IMG/VR virus record: IMGVR_UViG_3300037166_000075
DNA: 64,000 bases
Source: an uncultured virus (IMG/VR IMGVR_UViG_3300037166_000075)
Taxonomy: Duplodnaviria; Heunggongvirae; Uroviricota; Caudoviricetes
Reading direction: 5' to 3' (one strand)
Under the pieces are notes generated by a model. That model was not told the DNA's origin. It did no database searches and saw only the letters and a list, made by a program, of their open reading frames with translations. Shown here in pieces: positions 1 to 61,098 of this stretch. A program made the position numbers and the translations under genes. Numbering within the stretch: the first letter of the stretch is position 1; each line of letters begins with the position of its first letter.

Positions 1-278
1 CCCGCCGATATGGACATGGACGTGTTGAGTATCGCCGTCCCCGTCGCGGTCACATAGCCGGACCCGAACGTGACCGACGGCGCCGTCGTGTAGCCAGAGC
101 CGCCGGCCGTGATCTGCGTCGTCGCGATGGACATGCCGAGACCGCTGGCGGACCCGAGCGTGGGCGGCGTAGTGCAGGTGCCGCCCGTCAACAGCGCCGG
201 CTGCGTGGGAACGACCGTATAGTCGATGAGGCCGTAGGTCGGTCCGAACGTCGCGACCGTGCCCCCAGTCCCGATCGT
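1..278 (-). repeat. Start-less variant copy of a C-terminal segment of the 61759-64000 tail-spike gene (direct repeat of 61955-62232)
   Basis: Manual alignment: 270/278 identical, mismatches at 103, 140, 191, 206, 229, 230, 235, 261; runs off the window edge. Confidence 0.9.
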
Positions 279-289
279 ACCGGACTCAT

Positions 290-3103
290 CTAGTTCGGCG
301 GCAGGTTGGCGGCGACATAAGCGGTGAAACCTTGCGCGCCACCATTCCCTGCGTCGATCAAAAGCCCTCCGTAGTAAGTCGGATGGGTGCCATCATAGCC
401 GTAGGTTTTGTAAACAGCGAACGCATCGCCAACCGACAAGGATGCGACCGTGAGTCCAGTTTGGCAGAGGATATACGACGTTGTGTTACCATAGACGCGG
501 CAGACCTGACCGGCGTCTGCCCCCGAGGTCATTTTCATGACCATTCCAGGCATCGCGTTCGAGGCGTTGCTACCACCGAGCCAACTTGCCGTCGTGTAGT
601 TGATCATCGAGCCGGAAGACCCGCTCGCGATCGTCCCTGTCCCGTAGGGAACCGACGGCGACAGCCAATAGCTGCCGCCGAGGGTCGGAACATTCGAGAC
701 GTTTACTTCAAGGGTCGCGGCAAGGTCGAAGATGCCGGCGAAATGCCCGGTCGGCACTCCACCGCTCGTCACGGGAGCCCCCGCCAGCCATTGCGCGCCG
801 GCCCGCAGCCAAGCGTTGTAGGCTTGGCGCGAGCTTTCCAGGCTGCTGGGCGTGAAATTGGCCGGTACGATCATGTCGTCAGTCGACAACCCGCGCGGCA
901 GCATCGTGGTGACGATGACCTTTTTGCCCAGCGCCGACTCCGCCGCGGCGAACGTTTCAAGATTCGCGGCCACGGTCTGCCGAGACAGAGTTGCGACGTA
1001 GAGATCATTCGTCGATAGATCGGTAACGACAGTATCACAGAAGTCCATCATCCGCAGCCGCATCGCCCCGCCGGGGAAACCGCCGCCGGTAAACGACTGC
1101 ATTTCAGCCGAGGGGAGGCTGAAGTTCAAAATATTGTAGGTGCCAAGATGGAAGGCGGCGGCGAACCAGTTCTCGCCCCGCGGATCGGTCGTATTGACGG
1201 TCGGGATGTCGGCGGTCTGGCTGATGACTCCGGTGCCGGCCTGGATACTGTCCCCGGCCCCGCAGTAGCCGATGGAAGCCGCGTCGTTCCCAAGCACGAT
1301 CGGAAGGCTGGTGTAACAAGTGTTCAAGCCCGCGATTGGCATCGCGCCTGTTCCGACCACTGCGTTGGCCTGAGTCCCGCCGCAGGAAGATCCGGTGCCG
1401 GAGAACCCGGTCGGCAAGTTTCCATTGTAGCTATAGGTGGCCGCGGCCGGAGGCGTGGCGCCCGCGGTCGTGCCGACGGCGCCGGTGTCGATATAGACAA
1501 GGCCGGGCGCCGGAAGCGTCGCCAGGTAGGTCTCCGCGCCCGTTGTGGTCGAGCGGTAGATTTTGATGCCACCCGCGCAGCCTAGCGGGTCCGCCGTGGC
1601 CGTAGCGGTCAGCGTGACGGATGACGTCGCACCCGTCGTCGTAACGGATTGCTCGGCAGTCGGCCCGCTCTCCACTCCGGCCCCAAGGCCAGGAACGAGG
1701 CACGTTTCCTTATAGTAATATGTTGCAGCGGCGAGCGTCCCTCCCGTCGTTAATCCAGCGGCAGCAAGGGCGGCTGGAGGCGCGGCGACATAGGTTCCAA
1801 ACCGAATGGCGAACTGCGTGCCAGCGGGGATAATAACGCCCAGCTTGTCGGTCAGTTGACCGGTCCCGACTGTCGCGGACCACATAGTGCGAGAGCCGCG
1901 CAGTGTAAAACACGGCTGGTTCGTGTTGGCCACGCCGAGCGGATATTCCACACAACCAAGATACGCGACAGGGTTCGGCTGCGCGATTTCCACGCCGCCG
2001 GCACTGGCGGCGGTCTGCTCGGGCAGGAACAGTTGGAGCAGCGATATCGGTCCCCGCGTCGTCACCAAGGCGCGGATGGACTCGCCGTAAATCGGCGGCG
2101 TGCTGTAGGTGCCCTCCAATGCCGTAACCCAACTGCTCAGTCCCACGGGCTTGGGGCTGAGCAGGCCATTCCGCACGGCAAGCGTCGCCAGCGCCTGCCT
2201 CGTCGTGCCGCCAGTGGCGAGAGCGGTCGCGGCGGACACGTCGGTGCCGCTGAGCGAACCGCCGCTCAGTGTCCCGCCGGAGGCCGGGAGCGCCGCATTG
2301 GCGGTCGCGAGAGCGGCCTCAGCAATGCTGGTGACGCCCGGGAGGATGCTTAATGCGTCTGCGGCTTGCAAGAGGGCGTTATTGGCCGTCGCCGCCACGG
2401 TGGCGACGCTTGCCTGCGAGCCCGCGCCCCCGTTTGTCGGCGTGACGACGGCGGCGGACACGTCGGTGCCGCTGAGCGAACCGCCGCTCAGTGTCCCGCC
2501 GGAGGCCGGGAGCGCCGCATTGGCCGTGGTTTGCGTGGCCGCCAGAACGCCGCCGTCGCCCACGGTGCCCGTCGTAGTGCCGATCATCGTCGCGGCGATC
2601 TGTGCCGCAGTCGGAGTGCCTGTCAGCCCGGCAACACTCTGCACTGCGCCCGAAGCGGAGAGCGTGCCGTCGCCCGCGATGCTGACATTTGCGCCCTGCT
2701 TGACGCCGCCAAGCACGGAAGATGTGGCCGCAGGAACGCTCAGGATGCCGCTGGACAGCACCAAGCCGGTTCCGGGGGTGATTGCCTGCGCCAGCCCGGC
2801 GGTGCCGCTGGTGCCAAGCAGCGCGCCTGCGGTGGCGGGGAGGGCGGACTGGATTGCGGCGATGCGCGCGGCGGTCTCTGCTGTCAGCGCGCCGCCATCG
2901 GCTACTGTGCCGGCCGTGGTCCCGACATTGAGCGTCGCCGCACCACCCAGATTGAGGCTGGCGCGGGCTTGCGCTTGAGCGGCCGATCCCTGCTGTGCAA
3001 TCTCGCCGAGCCCCCGCTGGATCAGCAGTGGGCCAGCGGTCGGTGCCTGGGCAAGTGCGAGCGTCGGCCACAACGCGGCCAGGATAAGCGCGAGTCTTTT
3101 CAT
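290..3103 (-). CDS. Tail-associated SGNH/GDSL esterase with N-terminal signal peptide, low-complexity stalk and FN3-like module
   Basis: GDSI...TND...DGTHP motifs; MKRLALILAALWPTLALA-Q leader; YYYKETC...IYRS...YIDTG module. Confidence 0.75.
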   Translation of the reverse strand: MKRLALILAALWPTLALAQAPTAGPLLIQRGLGEIAQQGSAAQAQARASLNLGGAATLNVGTTAGTVADGGALTAETAARIAAIQSALPATAGALLGTSGTAGLAQAITPGTGLVLSSGILSVPAATSSVLGGVKQGANVSIAGDGTLSASGAVQSVAGLTGTPTAAQIAATMIGTTTGTVGDGGVLAATQTTANAALPASGGTLSGGSLSGTDVSAAVVTPTNGGAGSQASVATVAATANNALLQAADALSILPGVTSIAEAALATANAALPASGGTLSGGSLSGTDVSAATALATGGTTRQALATLAVRNGLLSPKPVGLSSWVTALEGTYSTPPIYGESIRALVTTRGPISLLQLFLPEQTAASAGGVEIAQPNPVAYLGCVEYPLGVANTNQPCFTLRGSRTMWSATVGTGQLTDKLGVIIPAGTQFAIRFGTYVAAPPAALAAAGLTTGGTLAAATYYYKETCLVPGLGAGVESGPTAEQSVTTTGATSSVTLTATATADPLGCAGGIKIYRSTTTGAETYLATLPAPGLVYIDTGAVGTTAGATPPAAATYSYNGNLPTGFSGTGSSCGGTQANAVVGTGAMPIAGLNTCYTSLPIVLGNDAASIGYCGAGDSIQAGTGVISQTADIPTVNTTDPRGENWFAAAFHLGTYNILNFSLPSAEMQSFTGGGFPGGAMRLRMMDFCDTVVTDLSTNDLYVATLSRQTVAANLETFAAAESALGKKVIVTTMLPRGLSTDDMIVPANFTPSSLESSRQAYNAWLRAGAQWLAGAPVTSGGVPTGHFAGIFDLAATLEVNVSNVPTLGGSYWLSPSVPYGTGTIASGSSGSMINYTTASWLGGSNASNAMPGMVMKMTSGADAGQVCRVYGNTTSYILCQTGLTVASLSVGDAFAVYKTYGYDGTHPTYYGGLLIDAGNGGAQGFTAYVAANLPPN
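2229..2524. repeat. Exact 74-bp intragenic direct repeat (2229-2302 and 2451-2524)
   Basis: Encodes ANAALPASGGTLSGGSLSGTDVSAA twice. Confidence 0.9.
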
Positions 3104-3130
3104 GATGATGTCCGGAAAGGAGCTACAGAG

Positions 3131-3865
3131 TCAGCCGGCGTACCATTGTGTCTGCGGCGATTGCGTCGTGAAGGAAATCCGGCTGCCGTCCGCGCCGACG
3201 ATGAACGGCACATTGACCCCGAGGTCCTCGATCTGCGCACCCGCCGGCGGATAGATCGGTGCCGCATCGGCGGGGTCCCTGTTCTGCACGATGACTGTTC
3301 CGCTCGCGAACCCCACCGCAGGCAGGATGAATCCCGATCCGCTCGGCACGCTGGCGATGATGTTGGTCTGCGCCAGCAATGGAAGCGCGGTTGCCTGATT
3401 TGTCCCCGTTCCAACCAGTCCCGTGGCGACGCTGGTAGATCCAAACACCGGAACCCCCGTGCAAAACGTTATCGGCATGCCAAAACCGGGATTGGGCGGC
3501 GGCGGGCAAAGCTCCGAAGGGCGGCCGACAGTGAGCCCGAAGTGCCAGGTCCAGACGCGGCCGGACGCCCCCATTGCCGTGACGGCAATCCTGTAGACCC
3601 GCCCTGCAACACCGCCGCCGAACTGCGCCGTGATGACGCTGCCGTTGACGGCGAGATCGAGTGCCGCGAGCTCGCCCGATCCGCTCGGCGCGATGGCGAG
3701 CGAGATTGCGGCGAGGATGTCCCCGACATCGGCGAGTAGTGCCGTGACGTCGATCGAGTAGTCGAGATCGCATCCCGGCTGGGCTGGGGGGAAGATGCCG
3801 TCAAGGCGCTTCCATAGCGGCCTGCTGACCGGCAGCACGATGGTGCGGGCCATTGAAGCGGTCAT
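3131..3865 (-). CDS. Putative fibre-tail adaptor protein
   Basis: LDYSID...GG..G..Y.I.V......GR pattern; ATG overlaps upstream stop (TGATG). Confidence 0.55.
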   Translation of the reverse strand: MTASMARTIVLPVSRPLWKRLDGIFPPAQPGCDLDYSIDVTALLADVGDILAAISLAIAPSGSGELAALDLAVNGSVITAQFGGGVAGRVYRIAVTAMGASGRVWTWHFGLTVGRPSELCPPPPNPGFGMPITFCTGVPVFGSTSVATGLVGTGTNQATALPLLAQTNIIASVPSGSGFILPAVGFASGTVIVQNRDPADAAPIYPPAGAQIEDLGVNVPFIVGADGSRISFTTQSPQTQWYAG

Positions 3866-4440
3866 CAGATCGCCGCCACCTGTTCCGGCCATGTCGGTGT
3901 GCCGCCGCCTTGCAGAACCGCAGCCTGGACGCTGAGGGCGTAGACGAGATCCCGCGATGCCCGGTACAGCGCCACGATCTGCGGTCCGGCGAGCGAGTGG
4001 GCATCGCCGGCGAGATCAGCGACCGGCAATGTGCCGCCGCCACCCGGCAGCCCGAGACCCGCCGCGAAGTCGCGCGCCAGGATGCCGACTTGCTCCACCA
4101 CGGGGGGAGCAAGGGAGTAGACGGCGGAGGCGGCGGGACAGGACCGGCAGGTGATGGTGATGCCGGCCATGGCGCGGCTGGCGAACGCCGCGGCGGCCTG
4201 CTGGATGGGCGTGGGGCCTGATGGCAGCGGAGCCGGAACCGTCTCGCGCGCCACCAGGGCGCCGTCCTGGACGGCCCAGCCGCCGGGTTTCGCCATGTGG
4301 CTGTCCCATTGCTCCGGCGTGACCTCGATCAGGTCGGCCGGCTGCGGCAGGTCGGGATAGCTCAGCGCATCGGTATCGTACCAGCCCGTCACGGGTGCCG
4401 GTTGCGCGGCGGCATGGTCGAAGCGTGCATAGAGGGACAT
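3865..4440 (-). CDS. Tail fibre assembly protein
   Basis: GWYD...P.DLIEVTPEQW motif, directly downstream of the fibre gene. Confidence 0.65.
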   Translation of the reverse strand: MSLYARFDHAAAQPAPVTGWYDTDALSYPDLPQPADLIEVTPEQWDSHMAKPGGWAVQDGALVARETVPAPLPSGPTPIQQAAAAFASRAMAGITITCRSCPAASAVYSLAPPVVEQVGILARDFAAGLGLPGGGGTLPVADLAGDAHSLAGPQIVALYRASRDLVYALSVQAAVLQGGGTPTWPEQVAAI

Positions 4441-4443
4441 CCT

Positions 4444-5016
4444 CTACCACCCTATCGCGAGGAAGGATTGCGTGATCGATCCGCCCGTCCATCCGCTGCC
4501 GGTCCACGATTCGGCCCATCCCTGATAGCCGCTGACCGTTGGATTCGACGCGCCGTGCACCGTCGGGGTGCCTGATCCCCACGAACCCGCCGCCGCCTCT
4601 TCGCAGACGAGTACCTGAAAGCAGCCGTGCGGGAACGTGACCGGGAACGTCACGCTGCTCGGTGCGCCGATATTATTGCAGCCCCACTGGATGATCAGAC
4701 CCGACGGCAGGTACTGCACGCCGGACACGCCAACACTCGCCGGGCCGGTCGTGACACCGAACTGCCCGAGGTTCACGGCTTGGCTGGACTGCGTCGCCGC
4801 CGCGACGGCGAACTGATAGTTCGCGTTGCCAGTCAGCGCCGCCTTGTTGGCATAGAGCCATGCCGTGCGGTTCGCGAGGGCCTGCGCTGCCGCGTTGTCG
4901 ACACCGATGCCGCCGTGCGAGGCGCCCGTCGCCTGCCCTTCGACGAGGTCGGTCTGCAGGATGCCGGGGACCGAGTTGGGCGTGTAGCTGGCGCTGTCGA
5001 TTAGGGTGCCGCTCAT
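4444..5016 (-). CDS. Short tail fibre protein (gp53-like C-terminus)
   Basis: QALANRTAWL and LPSGLIIQWG...FPVTFP...IGW motifs. Confidence 0.75.
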   Translation of the reverse strand: MSGTLIDSASYTPNSVPGILQTDLVEGQATGASHGGIGVDNAAAQALANRTAWLYANKAALTGNANYQFAVAAATQSSQAVNLGQFGVTTGPASVGVSGVQYLPSGLIIQWGCNNIGAPSSVTFPVTFPHGCFQVLVCEEAAAGSWGSGTPTVHGASNPTVSGYQGWAESWTGSGWTGGSITQSFLAIGW

Positions 5017-5026
5017 CGGGTCTGCC

Positions 5027-5671
5027 TCAGTACGTGATCGTGTAGCTGCCCGCGTACGTGGCGGTGCCATTGAAGGTGAATGCCGGGGTCAGGGCATGGG
5101 TCCAAATCGGCACCGGCGCCGTGTGGAGCGCGACACAGGTCCAGACCGTGCCGGTGCCGTCCGTCACGGTACCGCCGACGGTCGTTGGCCAGGTCGGATG
5201 CGCGGATCCGGTGGTGCCGGCTGTCGTGCAGCACTGCACGTTGCCGTTGCTGTCCTTGATGATGGTGCCGACCGCCACGGCAGTGCTCGCCGACCACGCC
5301 GCCGTCACGACCCCGATGGAGATCGGGGTTCCGGTCGCGCCGGTATTCCCGAACAGGCCAAGTTCATTGACCGTTATGCCGGGTACCGCGCCGTAGTCGG
5401 TCGGCGTGATGGCGTAGCTGAACGTCACCGATCCGGCCGAAGGATAGGTGTGACCGGTGACAGCGTTGTAGTACTGCGCCGATCCGCTCAGCGCGGTGTC
5501 GCCCACGGCCGGTGTCGTGGTGCCGGATCCGAAGCCCATCAGGCTGACCGGCTGGCCGGTGACATCGCCGCCGGTGAGATGGGCCGCAGCAACCAGCGCC
5601 GCGTTCACGATGAGGTTGTGGCGGGCACAGATCAGCTTTCCATTCCGGTAGAGACGGAAGGACCCACGCAT
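5027..5671 (-). CDS. Baseplate/tail-collar-like structural protein with inserted Trp-rich module
   Basis: NLIVN...GFGSG...ELGLF pattern; position after the tail I-like gene. Confidence 0.55.
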   Translation of the reverse strand: MRGSFRLYRNGKLICARHNLIVNAALVAAAHLTGGDVTGQPVSLMGFGSGTTTPAVGDTALSGSAQYYNAVTGHTYPSAGSVTFSYAITPTDYGAVPGITVNELGLFGNTGATGTPISIGVVTAAWSASTAVAVGTIIKDSNGNVQCCTTAGTTGSAHPTWPTTVGGTVTDGTGTVWTCVALHTAPVPIWTHALTPAFTFNGTATYAGSYTITY

Positions 5672-5691
5672 CTGTTCTTGCTCCTGTCGGG

Positions 5692-6417
5692 CTATGCGGT
5701 CGGCGTGCCGTTGATGGTGAAGCCGGAGTCCACGATCGCGGGCTGCGTGCCGCCGTGGGTCAGTCCGGTGTGGTAGAAGTGCGCGTTGTGGTACGGCGTC
5801 GTCTTCTTGACGTCGGTGATGGCCTGGATCGGCGCCGTGAAGGTGTCGGTGATCGGGATCGGACTATCGACGCCCGGGGCGCTGAAGGAATCCGCCAGCA
5901 CGATCGCAGGATCGGAAAATGTATCAGTGAACTGCAGGGCATCGAGCCAGCAGCGTTCCGGCTTGAAGAACTTGATGGCACCGATCGCCTGCGCCTGGAC
6001 GGAGGCCGGGATCGCTGCACCGCCACGCGGCATCACGACACGGAACACGGCCCAGCCCTCGTTGTCCGGCCAGGTGGAGCCTCCCCAACTGTCCTGGCCT
6101 TCGAGGATCTCGGCGCCGGAGAACCCCAGGCTCGCCATGATCGTGGTGATGGCGGCGGGTGTCCCCATCTTGGCATGCAGGCCGATCGCCTGCTGGATCA
6201 GCGTCCGCTGATCGCTGGTGCTGGCCAGCAGCGCCCACCACGGCGACGTCATATCGAACTGCCAGGCCAAGAACGGCAGGACCGCGGCCGGCACATTCTT
6301 GATCACGTAGACCAGGATCTGCGTCAGATCGATGCCGGCAAGCCGTGCCCCGATCTGAAGATGCGCCTGGGTCCGGACATCGTTGATGCTGCTCGGCGGG
6401 GTCAGGGTGCCGCTCAT
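5692..6417 (-). CDS. P2 gpI-like baseplate wedge (tail protein I)
   Basis: LPFLAWQF...HAKMGTPAA...KPER motifs. Confidence 0.8.
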   Translation of the reverse strand: MSGTLTPPSSINDVRTQAHLQIGARLAGIDLTQILVYVIKNVPAAVLPFLAWQFDMTSPWWALLASTSDQRTLIQQAIGLHAKMGTPAAITTIMASLGFSGAEILEGQDSWGGSTWPDNEGWAVFRVVMPRGGAAIPASVQAQAIGAIKFFKPERCWLDALQFTDTFSDPAIVLADSFSAPGVDSPIPITDTFTAPIQAITDVKKTTPYHNAHFYHTGLTHGGTQPAIVDSGFTINGTPTA

Positions 6418-6431
6418 CTCGCGTGCCGCGC

Positions 6432-7913
6432 CTAGCCGTACTGCTTTTTGGTGCCGGTGACGAAGGTCAGGTTGATGGCGGTGCAGTTGCACCACTCGCC
6501 GTCGGCGAGCACGATCCTGCCGTCAGATCCGACGGTCGTTCCGCCCAACAGGCCGCCCGGGCCGACGGTATAGCTGACCACCCCGGAGACCGGAGAGACC
6601 GCCGTCAAGACGGTCCCGGCCGGAAGGTTCTGGGCTGCCCCGTTGGTCTGGGCGGTTATGGTAATCGTGGCGGTTTCCGATTCCTGGAATGAGATACTTC
6701 CCGTGCTGGAGCCGCCGGAGCTTAGATTATACAGATTTCCGCTGGCATCCTTCAGAACGGTGCTGAGCGGAAGGGATGTCATGATCGCCGCGACGACGAT
6801 GAGACTTCCCGTTGCGGTGGTATGGGTCACAATGTTGATCGGGGCCACCTCATAGACGCCCGGGACCGACAGCGCAGTGCTCCATTCCGAGGGGACGAGA
6901 TCGTTCGAGATCGAGCTGGCGAGATCAAGGGCAAGCTGTACCGCGGCAGCCTGAGCGCTTGCCTGCGCAGTGGAGGACGCATCGGCGAACAGCGTCACGG
7001 TGGCGGTGACGGTATAGTCGATCTCCGTCACGGCGTACGCCGCCACGGTGTCGCAGAGCGGCCTGACGGTGGTGGGTGCGCATGCCGCCAGCACTTCGGC
7101 CAGCACGGCCGGGGATGCGATCGCGATGCTGTTCGGAGCAGCGGCGGGCTGCTGGAGAACCGGGCCGGTCAGGACATAGATCGCGATCTGCCCGGGCGCC
7201 GGCGTTATCACGTTGGCGTCGATGATCGTTGAATCTGCCGACGCCGCGAAGAACCGGTAGGCGCCCTCGGGGCCGGCCGAACTGTACTTGTTCGGGGACT
7301 GCTGGATCCTGGCCCGGTAGTGATCGTCGGTTTCCGGATCGGACCCGTCCGATGTTGTTGTCGTGTTGGTGATGCCCGCCAGCAGGCTGTTGCCGCCGAT
7401 GATGACGCTGACCTGGCCGGGCAGATAGCCGTTCGCGGTTGATCCAGCAGTCTGGGCCGAAGCCGCGACGGTCAGGACGGTGGTCCCGGCCGGGAACGTG
7501 AGAGCCGCCGAGGTCAGGAAGACCTGCGCGCCGTCGGTCGTTCCGACCTGGCTGTTGGCCGGCAGCGTGTAGGGAACCGTCAGGGCGTTCGCCAGCGTGG
7601 CCTGGAGCGTCGTGGTGGACGGCTGGGCCGCGAGCCGTGGCGTGTCGGTGAGCTGGCCGATATAGTCCAGCACCGGGTAGGACGCGAAGGCCAAGAGGTT
7701 CTGCTGGCCCGTGTATTGGATGGCGTTCCGGACCAGTGTCTCCCGGTAGGCATAGAGGTTGATCAGCAGGCGTTCGACCTGGGCCGGGTAGAGGGTCTTG
7801 CCGCTGGCCTGCTCGAACGTCGCGATCATGTCGTTCAGGATCGCGAGCGGATCGAGACCGTCAGAATCGGTCAGGAACGACGGGGCCGGCAGCGTGGTGA
7901 TCGAGGCGCTCAT
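6432..7913 (-). CDS. Baseplate J/gp47-like protein
   Basis: LYPAQVERL, NLLAFA, ETDDHYRARI, AGPEGAY, RPLCD motifs. Confidence 0.9.
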   Translation of the reverse strand: MSASITTLPAPSFLTDSDGLDPLAILNDMIATFEQASGKTLYPAQVERLLINLYAYRETLVRNAIQYTGQQNLLAFASYPVLDYIGQLTDTPRLAAQPSTTTLQATLANALTVPYTLPANSQVGTTDGAQVFLTSAALTFPAGTTVLTVAASAQTAGSTANGYLPGQVSVIIGGNSLLAGITNTTTTSDGSDPETDDHYRARIQQSPNKYSSAGPEGAYRFFAASADSTIIDANVITPAPGQIAIYVLTGPVLQQPAAAPNSIAIASPAVLAEVLAACAPTTVRPLCDTVAAYAVTEIDYTVTATVTLFADASSTAQASAQAAAVQLALDLASSISNDLVPSEWSTALSVPGVYEVAPINIVTHTTATGSLIVVAAIMTSLPLSTVLKDASGNLYNLSSGGSSTGSISFQESETATITITAQTNGAAQNLPAGTVLTAVSPVSGVVSYTVGPGGLLGGTTVGSDGRIVLADGEWCNCTAINLTFVTGTKKQYG

Positions 7914-7931
7914 GCGGGAGTCTCCGCGCGG

Positions 7932-8168
7932 TCAGTGCGCAGGCGCATCGGCGGGCGGGGCTGCGTCAGCCTTCTTCGCTGTGGCCTTGAGCGTATCGTT
8001 CTCGGCCCGGAGCGCAAAGATTTCCGTGCGAAGTTCGACCGTCTCCTGGGTCAACTGCATGACCGTAGCGGCCAGCGCTTGCATCTGCGGAGAGGGGGGC
8101 TGTGGGACGGTTTGCGCCGCCGCGATGACGGGAACGAACAGGATGGACGCGATGATGAAACTACGCAT
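7932..8168 (-). CDS. Small coiled-coil protein with signal peptide
   Basis: MRSFIIASILFVPVIAAA-Q leader, GAGGAG RBS, heptad-like middle. Confidence 0.65.
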   Translation of the reverse strand: MRSFIIASILFVPVIAAAQTVPQPPSPQMQALAATVMQLTQETVELRTEIFALRAENDTLKATAKKADAAPPADAPAH

Positions 8169-8177
8169 GGTGGCTCC

Positions 8178-10280
8178 TCAACAGTGCGTAACAATGCCTT
8201 TGACAGAAGCAAAGCTGGATGTGGGTGTGCCGGAACAGGACACGCCCGCGCTGGTACCGGAGGTGAACGACGCAGAAGTTAGTCCGTTGGGGAAATTGAC
8301 CACTCCCGTCCCCAGAGCGGTAATGCTGAGGTTCGCGTTCGTTGCGGGGGACGCACCGGCACCAACGACGGTTATGCCCGGGGCTGCGCCTGCACTCCCC
8401 ACTATTTCGACGCGGGAGTTGTAGTTAGCGACAGTTGGACCGACCATGAAGCTGGGGCCAGCATATTCCGATGTCGTGAAGGAACTCTCGTCCCACAGGA
8501 TGCCGTTCGACACGGTGAGTTCGGTATCCGTGTTGGATGTCGGGTAGTGGTCGTCCGTTATGAACGCATAGGTCGCCAGTTGCGTGGAGGCCGAAACCGC
8601 ATTCTGCAGATTGAACCAAATGCCTTTGTAGTAGCCAGGTAGCGCGGTGCTTCCCTCATTCGTTATCTCGACGGCGGCAATGGCCTTGCTTACGTTGGGC
8701 CCGATCGTGGACACCTCGATCGAGGCGTCGCCGGGGATGATCCCGCTATGCAAGTTCGTGACGGCCACGACGGCCCCGTGTGCCGCCCCGCTGGTCTGTC
8801 CCGCGATGGTCTGCGCCTGGAACACCCCTCCGAATGATTGGGCGCCGTTGACGCCGTTGACGCCCAGGCCGGCGACGCCGTACCCGTCTCCGCCGGCATT
8901 CGTCACCGTCGTGGCCCCGTAGACGCAGATCCCGCCGGATGCCTGCGGCAGTGTCATTACGCAGCCGTAGCCGGCGACGCCATTCGGGTAGGTCGTGCTG
9001 TTCGGCGAATAGCTGCCCTGTAGGCTGTTTACGAACAGCGTGGCCCCCGCAGAGCCGTTGCCTATCCAATCGGTCAGTATATCGCCACCGTAGCGGGTTC
9101 CGCCTGTATAGGTTCCGCTATTCGTCTCTGCCGTTGACGTCATCGCCAGGGCCTGCACAGACGTCAGGCCAGCCGAGACGGTGACCGTTCCGAGGAACGC
9201 AGCGTTGCCGCCCGCCTCGAACGTGCTGCCGGCGACGAACGGGCTGGCGGCATAGATGGCCGCCGTTCCCTTGGCGGTCAGGTTCAGCTCGACGTTTGTG
9301 TCCGCCCCGATCGCCGCGACTTGCGTGGGCGCTCCGGTAACACTTGGCACCAGCGCCACGCCATTGACCGCGTTGGCGATCGCCTGGATGCTGGCATCAA
9401 GGCCACCGGCCTGGTTCACGAACGAGACGCCACCGTCCTGGAACTGCATGCTGATGGAATTCGCGGCTGTCGCCACGGTACTGGTGATGTTGGGTCCGGC
9501 CACGTCAGAGGCGTCATGCCACTGGATGATGTGGCCCTTGGCGAGCCGCATCGCATACCCAAAGCCGCTGTAGTTGGTGAGCGCGTTGGCGCCGACAATG
9601 ATTCCGGTCTGGAAGCGCGCCCCGTTGTCCTTGATGCCAATCGCCTCAGTGGCATCGGTGACGCCGGCATGCGAGCCGCCGGAGGCCAGCCAGAGGGCGA
9701 TCGTCGAACCATAGACCTCCGGTGAGCCCGGAGACGTGGCCGTGGCCTGCGGGCCGAAATTCACGGCATCGATCTCGCGCCCGAACGCGAGCCCGGAGGA
9801 GCCCGACAGTGTCTGCGCCTCATCGTATCCCGCGTAGACCGAGAGGTGGCGGCCGCTTGCGGCGAACACGTCGTCATTGAACGCGAAACCAGCAGTGCCA
9901 ATCGTAGTCTCCAGCGAGCCGTAGCTGTTGCTGAGCTGCGAGGCCCGGGAGGCTGTCGTCAGGGCGATCTGCCCGTTGGGCGACAGAACGGCGGCATTCG
10001 CGCCGGTCACGGGCCAGGCGAGCTGATAGGCCGACCCGCTGGTCAGCCAGTCCGCGGCATAGAGGTGCGTCGTGCCGCTCACCCCGAGCCCCGTGAACGC
10101 GCCGGCCGCGTTGTAGTCCTGCTTGGACGCCCACGCATGGTCCCACTGCGAGATGGACCATATCGCCCCTTGTGCCGGGGACTGTCCGATGCCGAAGCCG
10201 TTTGTGGGAGCCGGTATTGACTGTGCTGCTGCCGGCAGCGGGCCGATCAGAATCGCGAAAATCGCGAGAAGTTTGCGCAC
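8178..10280 (-). CDS. Beta-rich tail fibre/spike-like protein with signal peptide (700 aa, GTG start)
   Basis: AGGAG RBS then GTG-RKLLAIFAILIGPLPAAA-Q; G/A/T/S-rich; LTAKGT/ITALGTG fibre-like repeats; C-terminal Cys pair. Confidence 0.65.
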   Translation of the reverse strand: MRKLLAIFAILIGPLPAAAQSIPAPTNGFGIGQSPAQGAIWSISQWDHAWASKQDYNAAGAFTGLGVSGTTHLYAADWLTSGSAYQLAWPVTGANAAVLSPNGQIALTTASRASQLSNSYGSLETTIGTAGFAFNDDVFAASGRHLSVYAGYDEAQTLSGSSGLAFGREIDAVNFGPQATATSPGSPEVYGSTIALWLASGGSHAGVTDATEAIGIKDNGARFQTGIIVGANALTNYSGFGYAMRLAKGHIIQWHDASDVAGPNITSTVATAANSISMQFQDGGVSFVNQAGGLDASIQAIANAVNGVALVPSVTGAPTQVAAIGADTNVELNLTAKGTAAIYAASPFVAGSTFEAGGNAAFLGTVTVSAGLTSVQALAMTSTAETNSGTYTGGTRYGGDILTDWIGNGSAGATLFVNSLQGSYSPNSTTYPNGVAGYGCVMTLPQASGGICVYGATTVTNAGGDGYGVAGLGVNGVNGAQSFGGVFQAQTIAGQTSGAAHGAVVAVTNLHSGIIPGDASIEVSTIGPNVSKAIAAVEITNEGSTALPGYYKGIWFNLQNAVSASTQLATYAFITDDHYPTSNTDTELTVSNGILWDESSFTTSEYAGPSFMVGPTVANYNSRVEIVGSAGAAPGITVVGAGASPATNANLSITALGTGVVNFPNGLTSASFTSGTSAGVSCSGTPTSSFASVKGIVTHC

Positions 10281-10282
10281 GG

Positions 10283-10795
10283 TCAGAATGCTCCTGTCCC
10301 AAAGGCGCTTGCCCCGAACACGAATCCCGAGGCTCGACTGGGCGCCGCTGTTGCCGCGGCGCCGACCGTCACCGTCGTGCTCTGCACGGTGTTGCCGATC
10401 ACGATCTGCGGTGCCGTCCCGGCCAGCTTCAGGACCCAGCTCACCGTGACATCGAGGGCACCCGGACTTGCTGCACTGACGGTGCTGGTCACAGACTTCA
10501 CCGTGATCCGGGGTTCCCAGGTCGCCAGCGCGTTCGTCACCGTCCCGGCGATCGCCGACTGCGCGGCCTGGATTGGCTGGTCGAGGTACTGGGTGATGTC
10601 GCAGCCGAACGTCGGTCGGAACGGGTCCTCGCCGGGGATGGTGGTGAGGATGATGGCGATGCACTGGTTGACGTCATCGAGCGCCTGGACGATCGAGCCG
10701 ATCCCGGAGCCGGTCCCGCCGCCAGCCGTGGCGTCGAGTTCCAGCGACCAGTCGGCCGAGGTCACGTCGGCCAGGGTGGCGGTACCGGACATCAC
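10283..10795 (-). CDS. gpW/gp25-like baseplate wedge protein
   Basis: ILTT.PGEDPFRPTFG...WEPRI. Confidence 0.9.
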   Translation of the reverse strand: MMSGTATLADVTSADWSLELDATAGGGTGSGIGSIVQALDDVNQCIAIILTTIPGEDPFRPTFGCDITQYLDQPIQAAQSAIAGTVTNALATWEPRITVKSVTSTVSAASPGALDVTVSWVLKLAGTAPQIVIGNTVQSTTVTVGAAATAAPSRASGFVFGASAFGTGAF

Positions 10796-11413
10796 TTACC
10801 CCTGCGGACCAGAAGTCGTCGCTCCGCCACTCTGAACATCGCCGTGCACGTGCTGGGTGGCGCTGATCCCGATGGCCACCATGTCGCTGTCGCTGACGAT
10901 CTGGCCGTGGACCTTGATGGTGCCGTCGCCGTTCAGCTTGATGTAGGAGCCGGCCCTGTCCTGCAGCAGCACGGTGCCATCGCTGGCCAGTGCAATTTCA
11001 TTGCCGAGCGGGGTATTGATCGTGGCGCTTCCGCTGGTACCAAGCTGGACCGTGAGGGTGTGGGCCGCGGTGTCGTAGACGATGCTGGTGCCGTCGCTGT
11101 AGTCGGTCCTGTCCTGGGTATTGGTCGCGGCCTCGACTGGTGCGTCGACGCTCGACCACAGCTCGCCGTCGATGCTGCCGTTCTCGTCGTGCTCGTCGAG
11201 CGAGCACTTCACCTGCGCGCCGATCTCCGGTATGTGCCAGTGCTTCGTGCCCTGGGTGCCACGGGTCAGGACCTGGAGCCACCCGCTCTCGATGTTGTCG
11301 CGATCCGGGAACCGGACGCGCACGAATCCTTTGTACTGGGCCGTCCCGAGCGCGCTCACGATGCCGCTTCGGAACGTGACGTTCCGCGATTGTGCCCAGT
11401 ATTTATCTGCCAT
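10796..11413 (-). CDS. Baseplate spike gpV
   Basis: VRV.FPD...SGWL, P.IG.QV, terminal H-x-H. Confidence 0.9.
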   Translation of the reverse strand: MADKYWAQSRNVTFRSGIVSALGTAQYKGFVRVRFPDRDNIESGWLQVLTRGTQGTKHWHIPEIGAQVKCSLDEHDENGSIDGELWSSVDAPVEAATNTQDRTDYSDGTSIVYDTAAHTLTVQLGTSGSATINTPLGNEIALASDGTVLLQDRAGSYIKLNGDGTIKVHGQIVSDSDMVAIGISATQHVHGDVQSGGATTSGPQG

Positions 11414-11416
11414 CGC

Positions 11417-12502
11417 TCAGGTCCCCGGCGTTACGCCCGGCGAAGATGCGGCCTCGGTAATGTCCGCCCCGACGGTCTGGGCCGCCGTGCCGGTCACCAC
11501 GATATGCAGCGACAGCGCCGTGACCCACCCCTGGGTGGCGAGCCGGTGTTTGGCTCGCTCAATCATGTAAGTGCTGCTGTCGTACGTACCGAAGCCCGAG
11601 ACGTTCACTGTCATGCCGGCCCGATAAGTCATGGTTCCAGGCAACGAGATCTCGCCCGTGACCTTGCTCGCGTTGTGCTCGTGCAAGTAGGCTTGCGCGC
11701 GCAGTTGCGCCTGCTGGCCGTTCTCGACCCGCTCCACCGTCTTGAGGGTGTCGGCCGTTGGCACGTTGGTGGCGGTCGCGTGGCCGGTCACCAGCGCCTT
11801 GGTCGCGGGATCGAAATAGCTGACCTGCGCGGCCTTGTAGGTCTGCCGGCCGAGCGTCTGGTTCTTGAAGTCGAAGTTGATCACTCCCGTGCGGGAAATC
11901 GTCCCGACCGGCGCCACCGCTTCCAGTGCCGGGTGGCTGTAGAAGACCAGCTTGTTGTCCCGCACATTGAACTCGTAGTTGTGCGTGCTGGCGAGACGAT
12001 GCAGGAAGGCAAGATCGGGTTCCAGCGCCTGGGTGACGCGCCCGTAGGGGACATTCGGATCGACGGCATCGCCAACCACCGTGAAGCCGTGCCGGGCCGC
12101 CACCGTGCCGGCGATCTGCAACAGGGTCTGGCCCTCATAGGCGGCACTATTCGGGGTGCGGAGCGCCTGCGTGAGGCCGGCCTGGATAGCTTTGATGTGG
12201 AACTGGTCGGGCGGCCCCTTGAGGCCAAACTCATCGATCTGGAACGTCCCGACAGACTTCAGGGCGCTGCCGGCGTAACCGAGCGAGAGGTCGATCGTAT
12301 CCGTGATGGTGGGCGGATTGGCCTGCATCTGCTGCAGGGCATCGGTCAGCACGATCTCGATCGAGTTGGCCTGCTTGCCGACGGCCTCCTCGTAGGTGAT
12401 CTCGCTCAGGAAGGTGGCGAGCCGGCGCGTGATGTCGGTTCCGTTGTACAGCACGCGCCAGTCCGGCACCGGCAGCGCGAGGGATATCCCGGCGCCGCTC
12501 AT
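11417..12502 (-). CDS. Baseplate hub, gpD-like late control protein
   Basis: DIT, LGY, G.F.IDE....GPP, E.DLAFL.RLA motifs. Confidence 0.9.
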   Translation of the reverse strand: MSGAGISLALPVPDWRVLYNGTDITRRLATFLSEITYEEAVGKQANSIEIVLTDALQQMQANPPTITDTIDLSLGYAGSALKSVGTFQIDEFGLKGPPDQFHIKAIQAGLTQALRTPNSAAYEGQTLLQIAGTVAARHGFTVVGDAVDPNVPYGRVTQALEPDLAFLHRLASTHNYEFNVRDNKLVFYSHPALEAVAPVGTISRTGVINFDFKNQTLGRQTYKAAQVSYFDPATKALVTGHATATNVPTADTLKTVERVENGQQAQLRAQAYLHEHNASKVTGEISLPGTMTYRAGMTVNVSGFGTYDSSTYMIERAKHRLATQGWVTALSLHIVVTGTAAQTVGADITEAASSPGVTPGT

Positions 12503-12506
12503 GCGA

Positions 12507-13046
12507 TCAGCCGCCGCTCTGCGCGATGCAGACGTACTGCAGCTTGTTGCCGTTTGCGGACGTCTGGGTCGTCGAGATGGCGGTCGCCGAGGTCACGTAG
12601 CTCTGCGAGGCCAGCGGAGTAGCGATCCAGCTCACCACGCAGTACGGGGCCGCGTTGTAGGGCTGGGCGAAGGTGATGACGCAGCCGGTCGCGGAAGTTC
12701 CCATGGTCACGATCCCGGCGGTGTCGGTGCCGGCGATCGAGGGCGAGGTGCCACAGCTCGACAGGGTCGGGGCCGCGCTCTGGGCCGAGACCAGGTGGGC
12801 CGGGGCGGAGGTCGTGGTGCCGAACGCCTGGCCGGCGAGCGCGGCGGGGCTGGTGACGCCGTTGTTACCGGCAAGCCCGATGCCCACCGTGTTGGCGGTG
12901 GTCGGCGGGGTCTGGTAGATGACGGCGCGCAGCTGCCCGGTCGCGGGCGACTGTGCCTGCGTCGCCACGGCACCGCCGAGGCAGCCAATCAGGACCGCGG
13001 CGGCGGCGAGTTTCAGCACTGCGGGGAAGCGGAAGCGGAAGCGCAT
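12507..13046 (-). CDS. Exported Cys-containing small beta protein inside the baseplate operon
   Basis: AGGAG RBS; basic and hydrophobic leader (TQA-Q cleavage or LIGC lipobox); 4 Cys in the mature part. Confidence 0.65.
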   Translation of the reverse strand: MRFRFRFPAVLKLAAAAVLIGCLGGAVATQAQSPATGQLRAVIYQTPPTTANTVGIGLAGNNGVTSPAALAGQAFGTTTSAPAHLVSAQSAAPTLSSCGTSPSIAGTDTAGIVTMGTSATGCVITFAQPYNAAPYCVVSWIATPLASQSYVTSATAISTTQTSANGNKLQYVCIAQSGG

Positions 13047-13114
13047 CGTGGTCTCCTGGATCTGAGGGGAGGGGGAAGGCGTTTCTGAAGCTGAGGCGTC
13101 GGCGGGCGCGGGGC

Positions 13115-13399
13115 CTAGCCCCAAGGCGTCGTGCTGGCCGGCGCCGCTGGCGGCGGCAGAATTCCGCCCTGGATCACGGTGCCCTGCGGGATCTGGCAGA
13201 CGATCGGGACGGCCGGGTTGGCCATCACCAGGACGTTGATCTGCGTCGGATCGCCGTAGAGCTTCCACGCCACGGTGTCCCATCGCTCATTCAGGCCGGT
13301 CGTGTAGACGGCGTTCGGGGCCGCGGGCGCCGGCGTGCCGGATGCTGGCAGCAGCCCGTAGGCGAGGGCGAACTCGGCCGCCGTCATGGGTGTGGTCAT
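13115..13399 (-). CDS. Tail protein X (LysM-like)
   Basis: ERWDTVAWKLYGD...ANP...PW. Confidence 0.85.
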   Translation of the reverse strand: MTTPMTAAEFALAYGLLPASGTPAPAAPNAVYTTGLNERWDTVAWKLYGDPTQINVLVMANPAVPIVCQIPQGTVIQGGILPPPAAPASTTPWG

Positions 13400-13929
13400 G
13401 CCGACCTCGTGGCTGTGGACAGTGGCGCGTCCGCGAAGTCTCCGGCCACCGGGGCCGACGCGGGCGCTGGCGCCTGGAGCGGGGTTGCACCAGGGCCGGC
13501 CGTCGTGGTTCCGAGTGCGTTGGCGTTGGTCTGGACGGTGGGAGCCGAGGCCGGCAGCGTACCGGCCCATTGCAGCAGCGACAGTTCGCATCGCGCCGCG
13601 ATCAGGGTGCCGTCATCGGCCCGCCAGACGTCCCGCTGCCGCAGGTTGGTGATCACGTAGTTGCCCTTGTTCTCGACCCCGATCACCATGGGCGCGGGCT
13701 GATGCAGGGTCCGCTGCTGCTGCAGGTCGGCGATCGCGGACGTGGGATCGCACCACATCTGGTGCAGATAGATGCCAAGCTCGATCCTGGTCAGGTCATC
13801 GAAAATCCACTGCAGAACGGGCGGGCCCTTGATGACGTCGATCTTGGCATAGTGAGACTCGTCCTCAAACGACAGCTTGTCCGGGCCGCCCAGAACTGTG
13901 AACCCGATACCGCCGAATGCGCCGAACAT
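13396..13929 (-). CDS. P2 gpU-like tail protein
   Basis: MFGAFGGIGF start, P.LQW, G.YVI; follows TMP. Confidence 0.85.
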   Translation of the reverse strand: MFGAFGGIGFTVLGGPDKLSFEDESHYAKIDVIKGPPVLQWIFDDLTRIELGIYLHQMWCDPTSAIADLQQQRTLHQPAPMVIGVENKGNYVITNLRQRDVWRADDGTLIAARCELSLLQWAGTLPASAPTVQTNANALGTTTAGPGATPLQAPAPASAPVAGDFADAPLSTATRSA

Positions 13930-13947
13930 CTGCCGGTTCCCCTGCGA

Positions 13948-16056
13948 TCAGTAGGCGGGGCTGAAGCGGCTGTCGCCGAAGTTCAGCCGCGCATCTTCGT
14001 CGGCCGAAGTCGGATTGAGTCTCTGCATCAGGCTCCGGTGCACGTCGGCCACAGCCGCCGCAGCAGCCTGCGGGGCCGTCGCGCCGGTCACGGTCTGGTT
14101 GATCGTGATGTTCGCCGGCGCGCTGACCGAGTTGTTCACCGTGGCAGATACCGGCGCCGGCGAGGCCGCCGGAGTGCCGCCGGCCCAGGTGGGCAGCACG
14201 GACCGCGCCGCGCCGGTGACGGCCCCGACAGCCGAGGACGCGGCCCCGCTCACCGCGCTCTTGACGCTCTTGGCGGCTTCCGAGATGGCCTTGACCTTGT
14301 TGTCCATCCACTCGGCCGCTTGCCGGACATCTTCGATGACGGGTCTGATCTTGTCCCACGCGGCCTGGAAGACCCCGACCACGGCGTCCCACATGGTCTT
14401 GAAGAAGTCCGAAACGGGTTGCCATGCCCCGACGATCGCCGTCGCGGCTTCAGCGAAGTAGCGCTTGATATCCTGCCAGTGGTCGTAGACCAGGACCGCG
14501 GCATCGACGAGCCAACCGAACGGCCCCGCGATGGCGGCCACGATCGCCATATGGTTCCTGATCCAGTCCACGGCCTCGGAGAAGTACCGCTTGATGTCCT
14601 CCCAGTGGTTGTAGATCGCGATCGCGGCCTCGCTGATGCCGCCGGTCATGATCGCGAGCGCGGTCCTGATCCCCTCGATGTGCTCCCGGCACCAGGCCAC
14701 GCCTTCCGCGAACCATTGCTTGATCTTGTCCCAATGTTCGTAGATCTCGAAAGCCGCAACCGCGATGGCCGTTACCAGCAACCCGATCGGGTTCGCGGTC
14801 ATCGCGACTTTGACGGCCATCATGCCCGCCTTCACCGCCACGAGGGACGAGTGGACGATGTAGAAGGCGCCCCCGAGCGCGATGGCGCCCGATGCGAGAC
14901 CCGCGATCGCGGATGCGAACTCGGTGATGTGAGGGTGCTCCTCCGCGAACTGCCGCACTGCCCCGAGCACGTCGGTCAGGCCGTGGGCGAAGTCGGCGAT
15001 CGGAGCCAGCAGCGGCGTCCCGAACGCGACCGCCAGGTCCGTCACGGCGTTATGGAGGTTGGCGAGCTGTGCCGCGAGGGTTTCCTGTTGCTTCGCTGCT
15101 TCGGCGGCAGTCGAGCCCGCAGCGTTCGCCAGGTCCTGCGTGCCCTTGGTGATGTCCCCGACATGATCGACCATCAGGGCCAGGAGCCTGCCGGACGGCC
15201 CGAGCTTCTTTTCAAACGCCTCCAGGGCGGCCGGGCCGCGATCGTGCAGATGCTCAATCGTCGTGGTCAGATCGATCGTGCCGTCGCGGAAGTGATAGAG
15301 CGCGAACCCCGCCTCGCGGATTGCCGGGACGCCGTCCTTGCCGGCCTTGAGCATCGCCTCCGCGAGCGTGCCGAAACTCACGCCGGCGTTGCGCGCGGCA
15401 CCGGACTTGCTCAACGTCTCGACCGCCGCCAGCGACTGATCGATGTTGAGGCCGAGTTGCTTCGCGGTACCGGCGGTGTTGGCGAGCTCGCGCGCCATCT
15501 GCTGGGCGCCCCCGACGTTGGGCATCGCCTTCACCATCGCGGTGATCTTGTCGGCGACGTCCTGCATCCGTTCGGCGACTGGCTTGGCCTGGTCGCCCAT
15601 GGTCTCCATGGCGGGGCCAAGGATCTTGGAAGCTCCCTCGGCCGAGGTGCCGATCACGTTGGCGAACTGCGCCGTCGTGGCCATGGTCTCTTTCGCGGCG
15701 TCGAGCGAGCCCGTGTACTTGGACATCGCGGTCTGGGCGGCCGTGATGTCCTCGGCGCTGCGGGCATAGGTGGTGGAAAGGCTATCTGCCTGTTCCTGCG
15801 CCTCCTTGAGCTGGTCGGCCGTCGCGCCGGTCGCCTGTGCGAGCCGCACCTGCGCCTGCTGCATTTCCTCGGCTGGCCCGATGACGTGCTCCAGCACCTC
15901 GTAGCCGACGAACGCCGCCGCGGCCGCCTTGCCGATCCTGCCGACCGATTCCTTGAATCCCTCGGCATGCTCCTTGATCTCGTTCAGTGGCCCACTGAAC
16001 TTGTCCCGGAGTTCGACGAGGAACTGCAGGACGCCGGCATTGCTTTCGTCAGCCAT
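13948..16056 (-). CDS. Tape measure protein
   Basis: L.DKFSGPL start; ANPIG; IY.HW..IK..F repeats. Confidence 0.92.
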   Translation of the reverse strand: MADESNAGVLQFLVELRDKFSGPLNEIKEHAEGFKESVGRIGKAAAAAFVGYEVLEHVIGPAEEMQQAQVRLAQATGATADQLKEAQEQADSLSTTYARSAEDITAAQTAMSKYTGSLDAAKETMATTAQFANVIGTSAEGASKILGPAMETMGDQAKPVAERMQDVADKITAMVKAMPNVGGAQQMARELANTAGTAKQLGLNIDQSLAAVETLSKSGAARNAGVSFGTLAEAMLKAGKDGVPAIREAGFALYHFRDGTIDLTTTIEHLHDRGPAALEAFEKKLGPSGRLLALMVDHVGDITKGTQDLANAAGSTAAEAAKQQETLAAQLANLHNAVTDLAVAFGTPLLAPIADFAHGLTDVLGAVRQFAEEHPHITEFASAIAGLASGAIALGGAFYIVHSSLVAVKAGMMAVKVAMTANPIGLLVTAIAVAAFEIYEHWDKIKQWFAEGVAWCREHIEGIRTALAIMTGGISEAAIAIYNHWEDIKRYFSEAVDWIRNHMAIVAAIAGPFGWLVDAAVLVYDHWQDIKRYFAEAATAIVGAWQPVSDFFKTMWDAVVGVFQAAWDKIRPVIEDVRQAAEWMDNKVKAISEAAKSVKSAVSGAASSAVGAVTGAARSVLPTWAGGTPAASPAPVSATVNNSVSAPANITINQTVTGATAPQAAAAAVADVHRSLMQRLNPTSADEDARLNFGDSRFSPAY

Positions 16057-16488
16057 GGGGGGTGCCTGGTTTGGCTTCGCAGTCCCGCAGTGCCTCGGCC
16101 CAGAAGAAGATGTCGCCGATCGTCATGCGGCTCAACTCACTGGGCTGGATGTTGGCCCGCACTAGACTCCCGAGGAGGGCGCGGCTTGGGGCTCGGGAGC
16201 CTCCATGGGGGAGTCGTCTTCATTCAGCTTCTGGAACACCTTGCTGATCCGGGTGATGACTCCAAGCGGCAGGCGCCGGAATGTGTCGTAGGTCATCTGG
16301 ACGCCGTCGATCGCGACGCAGCGGGCCGTCAGCGCATAGTACTGCTCAACCGATGAGGCATCGGCAGGGGCGGACTTGAGGGCCTGGATGCTGTCGTCAC
16401 CGGTGGCTTGGCGGATCACCGCGACACGGCCGCGCGATAGCGGCACCCTTGTGGTCGGGACCGTGGGATCGGGGACTTCAACCATCAT
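16049..16488 (-). CDS. Tail assembly chaperone gpE (16162-16488) with predicted -1 frameshift extension gpE'
   Basis: The -1 frame reads ...ANIQPSELSRMTIGDIFFWAEAL...stop overlapping the TMP start; C5 run at 16207-16211. Confidence 0.75.
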
Positions 16489-16512
16489 GGCGGAGTTTCC
16501 TTGTGTTGCTGA

Positions 16513-17037: not shown

Positions 17038-17093
17038 CGTACTCTCCTATGTCTGGGTTGCGTGGCGCCGGGGTGCCACCGTTCCTTGGCGCG

Positions 17094-19415: not shown

Positions 19416-19505
19416 CGGAGCCTCCGATTTCTGTCTGCCGCAGCTACGCGGATTGCCCGACGCCGCGGCAAAGCGCGGCGCTCATCGGTCGAGGGGTGGC
19501 GTTGA

Positions 19506-59456: not shown

Positions 59457-59473
59457 TGGATTCTCCTGTTGTT

Positions 59474-60061: not shown

Positions 60062-60062
60062 A

Positions 60063-61064: not shown

Positions 61065-61098
61065 TGCGCATCCTTCCAACGGCGCCTTGCGCGTGGGC

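Follow-up and report, generated by a model that had tools for sequence, protein, structure and literature searches.

To our knowledge, the particles of tailed phages are taken to assemble wholly in the cytoplasm from leaderless proteins. The 64,000-nucleotide stretch analysed here (the window; IMG/VR record IMGVR_UViG_3300037166_000075, an uncultured virus of the class Caudoviricetes) raises the question of why several fibre- and spike-like genes in its tail operon begin with Sec-type leaders (signal peptides). The first-pass annotation had read their products as exported and oxidatively folded, and then either joined to virions or acting as secreted depolymerases or receptor decoys. When relatives of these proteins were compared, Sec export and disulfide folding of the leader-bearing proteins were strongly supported, by leaders kept in kind and by paired cysteines; this support is comparative and drawn from sequence rather than direct proof. 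We consider it probable (roughly 0.6) that the proteins are exported by Sec, cleaved, folded by Dsb and trimerised in the periplasm, and docked on virions at lysis.

Five open reading frames on the minus strand begin with a basic start, a hydrophobic core and a cleavage site, as first annotated: A (290-3103, ALA-Q), B (7932-8168, AAA-Q), C (8178-10280, AAA-Q), D (12507-13046, TQA-Q, although AVA-T also fits as its site) and E (61538-61696, VWA-Q). Leaders were called with a home-made Sec rule (a basic start, an uncharged hydrophobic core of at least 9 residues, and small residues at -3 and -1), which is a heuristic and not SignalP, was tuned after examples had been viewed and has A/G/S at -1 built in. 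When the strict rule was applied to the 71 called window genes, exactly A, B, C, D and E passed, together with 149 of 2400 shuffled N-termini (6 %); a looser first version passed four further window genes. Mature cysteine counts are even in A (10), C (4) and D (4, with a fifth in the leader), and Pfam confirmed that the genes are interleaved with gpD/V/W/J/I. A, B and C are separated from their neighbours on either side by only 2-27 nucleotides, as is D from gpD, so these four genes are embedded in the late operon. All five genes have a genome-like guanine-plus-cytosine content, and no C-terminal membrane anchor was seen by eye in A, C or D.

D is a mini-fibre of 179 amino acids (aa) that ends in a four-cysteine beta-sandwich tip of about 90 residues. 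This tip (the last 90 residues) defines a large family, with 294 word-search matches and, in profile searches, 4591 clusters at 50 % identity with E-values of 0.001 or lower, 1483 of them at 1e-10 or lower. The strict rule was passed by 230 of 259 retrieved proteins (123-1388 aa); of those that failed, several show a leader once a wrongly called start is allowed for, and others appear to be fragments. Leaders are carried by 89 of 105 members of 315-1388 aa, in most of which the profile matched the C-terminal part only. Mature cysteines are even in number in 225 of the 230 leader-bearing members, with a maximum of 22 in the family; the four tip cysteines are kept in 257 of 258 aligned tips, and cysteines beyond these four are even in number in 106 of 111 proteins. 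The leaders were 33 % identical and the tips 75 % in 400 random pairs. Conservation of leaders among homologs, which had been named as a check, thus holds in kind (the n/h/c layout of the leader) and not in sequence. Four of the 230 leaders are Tat-like.

Such leaders might not work as Sec signals at all: they could be uncleaved anchors, or the virion form could start internally and its cysteines oxidise in air after lysis, as they would in phages without leaders. The heuristic nature of the calls, the 6 % of shuffles that pass and the Met found within 15 residues after the cleavage site in 45 of the 230 leaders speak for this explanation. However, the n/h/c layout persists while the leader sequences diverge, and downstream of the leader, within the first 70 codons, neither A nor C offers an in-frame start with a ribosome-binding motif, while B, C, D and E have such a motif at their first codons. 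Cysteine parity also tracks leader presence: when the D family was set aside, leader genes had 41 even and 7 odd counts and leaderless genes of the same loci 144 even and 269 odd, genes not being independent. We regard non-working leaders as highly improbable.

The predicted structure of the D tip is a confident beta-sandwich. Viral fibre proteins were among its best predicted-structure matches and the Atlas clusters were 88-100 % viral; Foldseek found no match in the PDB at an E-value of 0.001 or lower. A trimer model of mature residues 40-148 scored 0.88 against 0.00 for the best control, with a predicted local distance difference test (pLDDT) value of at least 82 and a contact agreement of 81 %. 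The modelled tip therefore qualifies as a homotrimer, at a threshold that 20 of 30 solved pairs but only 1 of 23 single chains attained; its pass may reflect a resemblance to trimers already solved. The D profile was also run on cellular genomes: it matched two genomes among 201 relatives and one among 401 class genomes, and in each set G001 itself (the genome with the nearest copy of the window phage, the 61,912-bp circular contig G001:C85) accounts for one match. Because matches were so few, the tip is not a common cellular protein in the genomes searched. When 65 longer family members were scanned, 11 had Pfam matches (beta-helix, SGNH or Collar). Searches of the phage collection with A, P0171, P0244, P0241, P0243 and P0266 gave partial matches only, and the A and D profiles found nothing useful among PDB sequences.

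What the leaders precede was examined in four relatives picked by eye from 139, and in three of them a solved tailspike head-binding domain lies directly behind the leader. In P0252 the leader is followed by residues 33-103, which match the spike 9VYG (E-value 9e-9) and the Pam1 head-binding domain 7EEQ (1.5e-5), and the D tip stands at the end. P0244 matched 7EEQ (5.6e-4) and P0198 matched 9VYG (0.004), each with a Collar domain in addition; P0186 matched a head-decoration PHROG and nothing in the PDB. A shaft repeat found in leaderless fibres, including those of the cultured phage RsoM2USA, returns with two cysteines at the N-terminus of the mature chain in six proteins with leaders. The mature N-termini of A, C and D likewise recur in other leader-bearing fibres.

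The spike A (937 aa) consists of a leader (residues 1-18), a repetitive stalk to about residue 300 and a passenger. The passenger matched Lipase_GDSL_2 at an E-value of 5.7e-5, below the curated Pfam cut-off, and carries the SGNH signature (GDS at 617, the block III Asn at 698 and DxxH at 904); D309-S310, N390-D391 and H598, in alignment numbering, are invariant in five alignment rows, and it is predicted to be an SGNH hydrolase. Leaders were found in 4 of 5 non-self homologs. In the population allele L075 the same leader and residues 1-299 are followed by a pectate-lyase-like beta-helix, and in P0283 the A passenger sits behind a different leader and stalk. The 222-bp stalk repeat (window 2229-2527) differs in copy number between alleles. 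Further A-repeat loci (L076-L100) match a short stalk word only, with 1 of 17 called genes passing the leader rule, and have little bearing on A.

C is a spike-like protein of 700 aa between gpW and gpJ, and its only match in the phage collection was a tail spike (E-value 6e-7). Its homologs have a leader in 10 of 22 matches and none in 12; in the chromosomal tail elements L135, L136, L137 and L139 a leaderless homolog separates gpJ from gpI. In a tree of 27 C passengers, which left out P0123 and matches shorter than 150 aa, the leader-bearing ones need four changes, and a single clade was rejected (approximately unbiased test, p = 0.0012, with a long-branch caveat). Behind a constant leader and stalk, passenger domains are exchanged, and they are also found in leaderless baseplate spikes. 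The AlphaFold2 monomer of C was too poor for a structure search (pLDDT 43.7). It was also considered whether C is made of two repeats; this was rejected, as its halves are not repeats of each other. As a separate observation, the chromosomal elements of L224 (G061:C10), L135, L137 and L139, with the leaderless C homolog between gpJ and gpI, have sheath-, tube- and baseplate-like genes by eye and are possibly tailocins.

Tailspikes evolve by exchanging the enzyme while retaining the attachment end. The same pattern bears on whether the leader-bearing proteins are instead free secreted proteins, that is, soluble spike-derived depolymerases, esterases or lectins that accumulate in the periplasm and, once set free by lysis, strip capsules, help progeny escape or act as decoys. 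The SGNH passenger of A and the beta-helix passengers of L075 and other relatives fit such a role, as do chromosomal copies without phage genes, and the leaderless short fibre of the window might suffice for the virion. A signal-peptide SGNH esterase (gp40) in the lysis block of Xanthomonas phage PBR31 has, moreover, been read as a lysis helper (PMC10975493, main-text passages). Free proteins would not, however, be expected from the head-binding, Collar and head-decoration domains retained behind leaders, from a stalk that stays constant while the enzyme changes, or from D-type mini-fibres that have no enzyme and in many loci directly follow capsid and cement genes. We consider free secreted proteins unlikely. 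Of the two roles first proposed, the virion appendage is favoured over the free decoy because head-binding domains follow leaders in relatives and passengers swap behind a fixed stalk.

The appendage reading also agrees with gene position in relatives. After dereplication, leaders were found in 33 of 40 D-tip genes, 17 of 38 next genes and 26 of 470 distant genes; the set excludes the duplicates L024, L035, L037, L038, L047 and L063, four copies of the window phage and the non-D loci L013-L015. In the metagenome loci the counts were 40 of 51 D-tip genes and 18 of 39 next genes. Wrong starts were assigned to some genes (L023, L013:6385), which makes the counts per locus minimum values. When 55 neighbours were checked against PHROGs, D-tip genes followed major head and cement genes in L034, L057 and L019; elsewhere they are flanked by connector and tail genes (L052), by baseplate hub genes (L029) or by fibre and endolysin genes (L058, L030). 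They are thus spread over the head, neck, baseplate and fibre blocks of unrelated phages, and the leader-bearing fibres are, on these gene orders, a class across unrelated soil phages and not a quirk of one phage. We also observed a second leader-bearing family of about 155 aa directly after the D homolog in L031, L034, L036, L040, L042-L045 and L050. Its L031 member matches the window protein encoded at 3131-3865, and leaderless versions occupy that slot in L020 and L022.

Phage proteins that leave the cytoplasm usually serve exclusion or conversion, as do Bor, Lom and Cor. The leader-bearing proteins could accordingly reside in the envelope and convert the host or exclude superinfecting phages, binding or masking a receptor in the infected or lysogenic cell. 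Besides that precedent, repressor-like genes at 43469-43860 and the chromosomal copies, one of them amid long polysaccharide-enzyme-like genes by eye, point in this direction. The tight packing in the late operon and the genome-like base composition argue against it, as does the lack of a lipobox (Cys at +1 in 0 of 230 leaders), and no integrase was matched in the subset of window genes that was scanned. This explanation appears rather improbable.

Several results weigh against export followed by docking on the virion. A, C and D themselves matched no known virion-binding domain in Pfam or PHROGs, and the evidence for such domains is limited to the three of four relatives tested, among 259. 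The D tip had no match in 50,697 phage records, and its fold is only weakly like H-lectin, AP22 gp53-C and pyocin fibre tips (Z 5.4-6.2). Odd mature cysteine counts occur in P0287 (9) and the L075 allele (7). Leader-bearing spike-like genes lie in chromosomal, non-phage surroundings at L101:18335-19831 (G110) and L223:6026-8428 (G001:C421), which means that such proteins can persist without a virion; these two are possibly domesticated secreted adhesins or decoys. In L066 a leader-bearing relative stands among genes without a virion match in PHROGs. Virion-block and fibre genes checked in the cultured phages GP4, SI01, RHph_Y1_10, KLEP18-1, RsoM2USA, Paso and PfAn1 were leaderless, bar one membrane protein. 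Finally, virion disulfides can arise spontaneously in air, so that export is not needed for them (PMC13576161, in the passages available).

How could exported fibres reach the particle? Under the preferred reading, the head, tail, baseplate, one short fibre and a Gp77-type adaptor would be built in the cytoplasm as usual, and A, C, D, the companion B and the remnant E would be transcribed with the late operon and routed through Sec. Signal peptidase I would trim the leader, host Dsb would make the disulfides (G001 encodes DsbB) and trimerisation would occur in the periplasm. Once the holin has breached the inner membrane, or in the resulting lysate, the compartments would mix and the trimers dock by their new N-termini onto sites made in the cytoplasm, for example the Gp77 adaptor or the baseplate wedge, so that the particle would be fully armed only at lysis. 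We infer export, cleavage, Dsb use, docking site, timing and presence in the virion from leaders, cysteine pairing, fibre or spike architecture, gene position and modular exchange, all of which can be seen in the sequences or by comparing them. Finished fibres and spikes of T4 and P22 attach to finished particles in vitro. One possible gain, which is speculation, would be disulfide-locked appendages that are stable in acid soil.

The gene named as an adaptor in the first-pass annotation (3131-3865, minus strand) is leaderless, and its Gp77 fibre-tail adaptor domain was confirmed by Pfam (PF23148, E-value 1e-12; PDB 8JOU_D, 2.6e-6); no match was found in the phage collection. It is a candidate for a cytoplasmic docking site for A. 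Leader-bearing spikes come after the adaptor in the window and in L013, and leaderless proteins do so in the chromosomal elements L107 and L118. We further observed a Gp77-like adaptor in 146 of 401 genomes of the G001 family (L104-L132), mostly adjoining a conserved leaderless fibre-like gene of about 415 aa, which suggests a widespread domesticated tail module.

B is a coiled-coil-like protein of 78 aa without cysteine and a candidate co-exported companion or chaperone of C. Small leader-bearing genes also come after a spike in L013, L021, L030 and L057; by eye, the L021 gene aligns with the leaderless post-fibre gp24 of phage KLEP18-1; B itself aligns only weakly (14-32 %). E (52 aa) is the remnant of a second spike gene, and its start resembles by eye a 764-aa leader-bearing spike in the same slot (L013:11972-14266). 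In L013, which belongs to a related phage, gpJ and a gene in the gpI slot are followed by C-like and B-like genes with leaders, then by a leaderless fibre gene, the Gp77 gene and finally two spike genes with leaders. Next to E lies an alternative spike passenger, G (61759-64000, minus strand), whose 5' end is beyond the window, whose visible 746 aa contain 7 cysteines and whose C-terminus matches a tail PHROG. Window bases 1-278 recur at 61955-62232 with 97 % identity, the last 157 codons of G recur from window 1-278 onward, and two alleles of the spike locus are thus present at the window ends. In G001:C85 only a 3' remnant of the 61759-64000 gene follows gene A.

Among known systems, the tailspikes and fibres of Caudoviricetes (Pam1 7EEQ, 9VYG, AP22 gp53 4MTM, R-pyocin fibre 6CL6 and LKA1 gp49 4RU4) share the layout of anchor, stalk, passenger and tip. 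They are also alike in trimerisation (modelled here), swapped passengers, position in head or tail blocks and, in relatives, the head-binding domain. Unlike them, the window proteins and their relatives have a cleavable-type leader and systematic cysteine pairs, whereas the checked fibres of cultured phages begin directly with the anchor, except PBR31 orf035. The leader-bearing proteins are therefore not leaderless fibres of the usual kind, although they keep to the morphogenesis block outside L101, L223 and L066. In the Ralstonia podophage GP4 (PF23148, PDB 8JOU) the Gp77 domain also stands beside fibre genes, and 15 adaptor copies attach three fibre sets (PMC11445570, in the passages available). 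The 14 virion-block genes of GP4 that were checked are leaderless, whereas in the window a leader-bearing gene follows the adaptor and the tail is of the contractile type.

Disulfides stabilise virion parts in Agrobacterium phage Milano and in the gp39 tail tube of a siphovirus, according to the passages available, which resembles what is proposed for the window; the Milano passages searched mention neither signal peptide nor periplasm. No dedicated disulfide machinery is described in phages according to the available part of PMC13576161, which suggests host DsbA or air. Unlike in Milano-type phages, export in the window phage would give direct access to Dsb. Precedents with leaders are of two kinds. 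The filamentous phage proteins pIII and pVIII are virion proteins with Sec leaders, and pIII has periplasmic disulfides; they keep a membrane anchor and assemble during extrusion, whereas A, C and D show no such anchor at the C-terminus by eye and their phage has an endolysin. Signal peptides have also been reported on 5 % of prophage carbohydrate-active enzymes (CAZymes; PMC13507307, available passages), which, like gp40 of PBR31, are phage enzymes with leaders and are read as auxiliary metabolic genes or a lysis helper. In their available passages these papers exclude or ignore virion parts, whereas the leaders described here stand in front of fibre stalks and head-binding domains. The full-text literature (main texts, with few subscription journals) yielded no account of fibres with leaders that are joined to tailed virions, nor did the available passages of PMC3556154, bioRxiv 10.64898/2026.10.24.761521, PMC10811340, PMC9658991, PMC5026251, PMC4834066, PMC7824862, PMC13507307, PMC13576161, PMC11445570 and PMC10975493.

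Leaders also occur in two cultured phages. In PBR31 a leaderless tailspike is followed, before the holin, by orf035 (L225:5136-5945), a 269-aa protein with a leader, 2 mature cysteines and a C-terminus like the virion tail fibre 8VBX (E-value 3e-10) and a tail fibre PHROG. It has no D tip and no match to the proteins of this study at an E-value of 0.01 or lower, and is therefore an analogue. The main-text passages of PMC10975493 do not mention orf035; the supplements may annotate it. Rhodoferax phage P26218 has a leader-bearing 169-aa gene (L228:6715-7224) two places after the spike and before the lysis genes.

The window is nearly a whole phage genome with a P2-like contractile tail, and its structural genes, all on the minus strand, comprise terminase, portal, protease, sheath, tube, tape measure and gpU/X/D/V/W/J/I (Pfam, PHROGs). 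The baseplate wedge genes gpI and gpJ (Tail_P2_I, Baseplate_J) lie at 5692-7913 and the baseplate genes gpW, gpV and gpD (GPW_gp25, Phage_base_V, Phage_GPD) at 10283-12502. Three leaderless genes occupy 3865-5671, also on the minus strand: one for a 191-aa protein without a family match, one for the short conventional fibre (4444-5016), whose 190 aa were confirmed and whose tip matched Gp53-like_C (E-value 2e-12) in addition to tail fibre PHROGs, and one for a tail-associated protein of 214 aa (5027-5671) with a weak tail fibre PHROG match. The lysis block (58250-61079, minus strand) contains a GH108 endolysin (59474-60061, Glyco_hydro_108) and membrane proteins; the lipoprotein-like 58465-59037 is a candidate spanin, the holin and spanin assignments being putative and sequence-derived.

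Runs with at least 20 % of the query words were all peat metagenomes (20 of 24 rows), and the host may be an alphaproteobacterium, judging from one named homolog and a GcrA-like-looking gene. G002 had no coverage of the tail region. Contigs from RNA libraries (three runs) span most of window 1-20000, including B, C and D, but DNA carry-over is possible and they were not counted as expression. Other genes showed features of their own. The portal (27444-30887) forms a single fused chain of 1147 aa with an InPase-like domain and with a head-morphogenesis domain of the Mu gpF type. The prohead protease (24493-27438, 981 aa) combines an extended charged scaffold region with a zinc ribbon and has 12 cysteines. 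The sheath (17094-19415, 773 aa) and the presumed major capsid protein (22760-24382, 540 aa; phrog_13692, a PHROG of unknown function) have apparent Gly/Thr-rich beta-type insertions, and that of the capsid resembles A residues about 445-550 by eye. An RtcB RNA ligase (53337-54641), a cold-shock domain protein (30891-31148), a GNAT acetyltransferase (31866-32321) and a Mom-like DNA modification gene (44688-45098) were also found.

The proposed route would be new in kind if incorporation into virions is shown, its newness resting on the best explanation of the data. We lean, by a little, towards a broader statement: that widespread tailed phages of soil and peat, with myo- and podo-type blocks and with both head and tail positions, run a two-compartment assembly in which receptor-binding fibres and spikes, with small companions, leave the cytoplasm, are locked by disulfides and form trimers in the periplasm, and join the virion only at lysis, and in which passengers move repeatedly between cytoplasmic and exported chassis. 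The D tip can serve to recognise thousands of protein clusters that lack annotation, and with PBR31 export and docking become testable in culture. If the proposal is true, the periplasmic branch would be a new step in phage morphogenesis and Sec and Dsb would become host factors for infectivity. It would also explain how phages obtain disulfide-rich receptor-binding proteins, and soil-phage enzymes with signal peptides that have been filed as secreted metabolic genes may be virion spikes.

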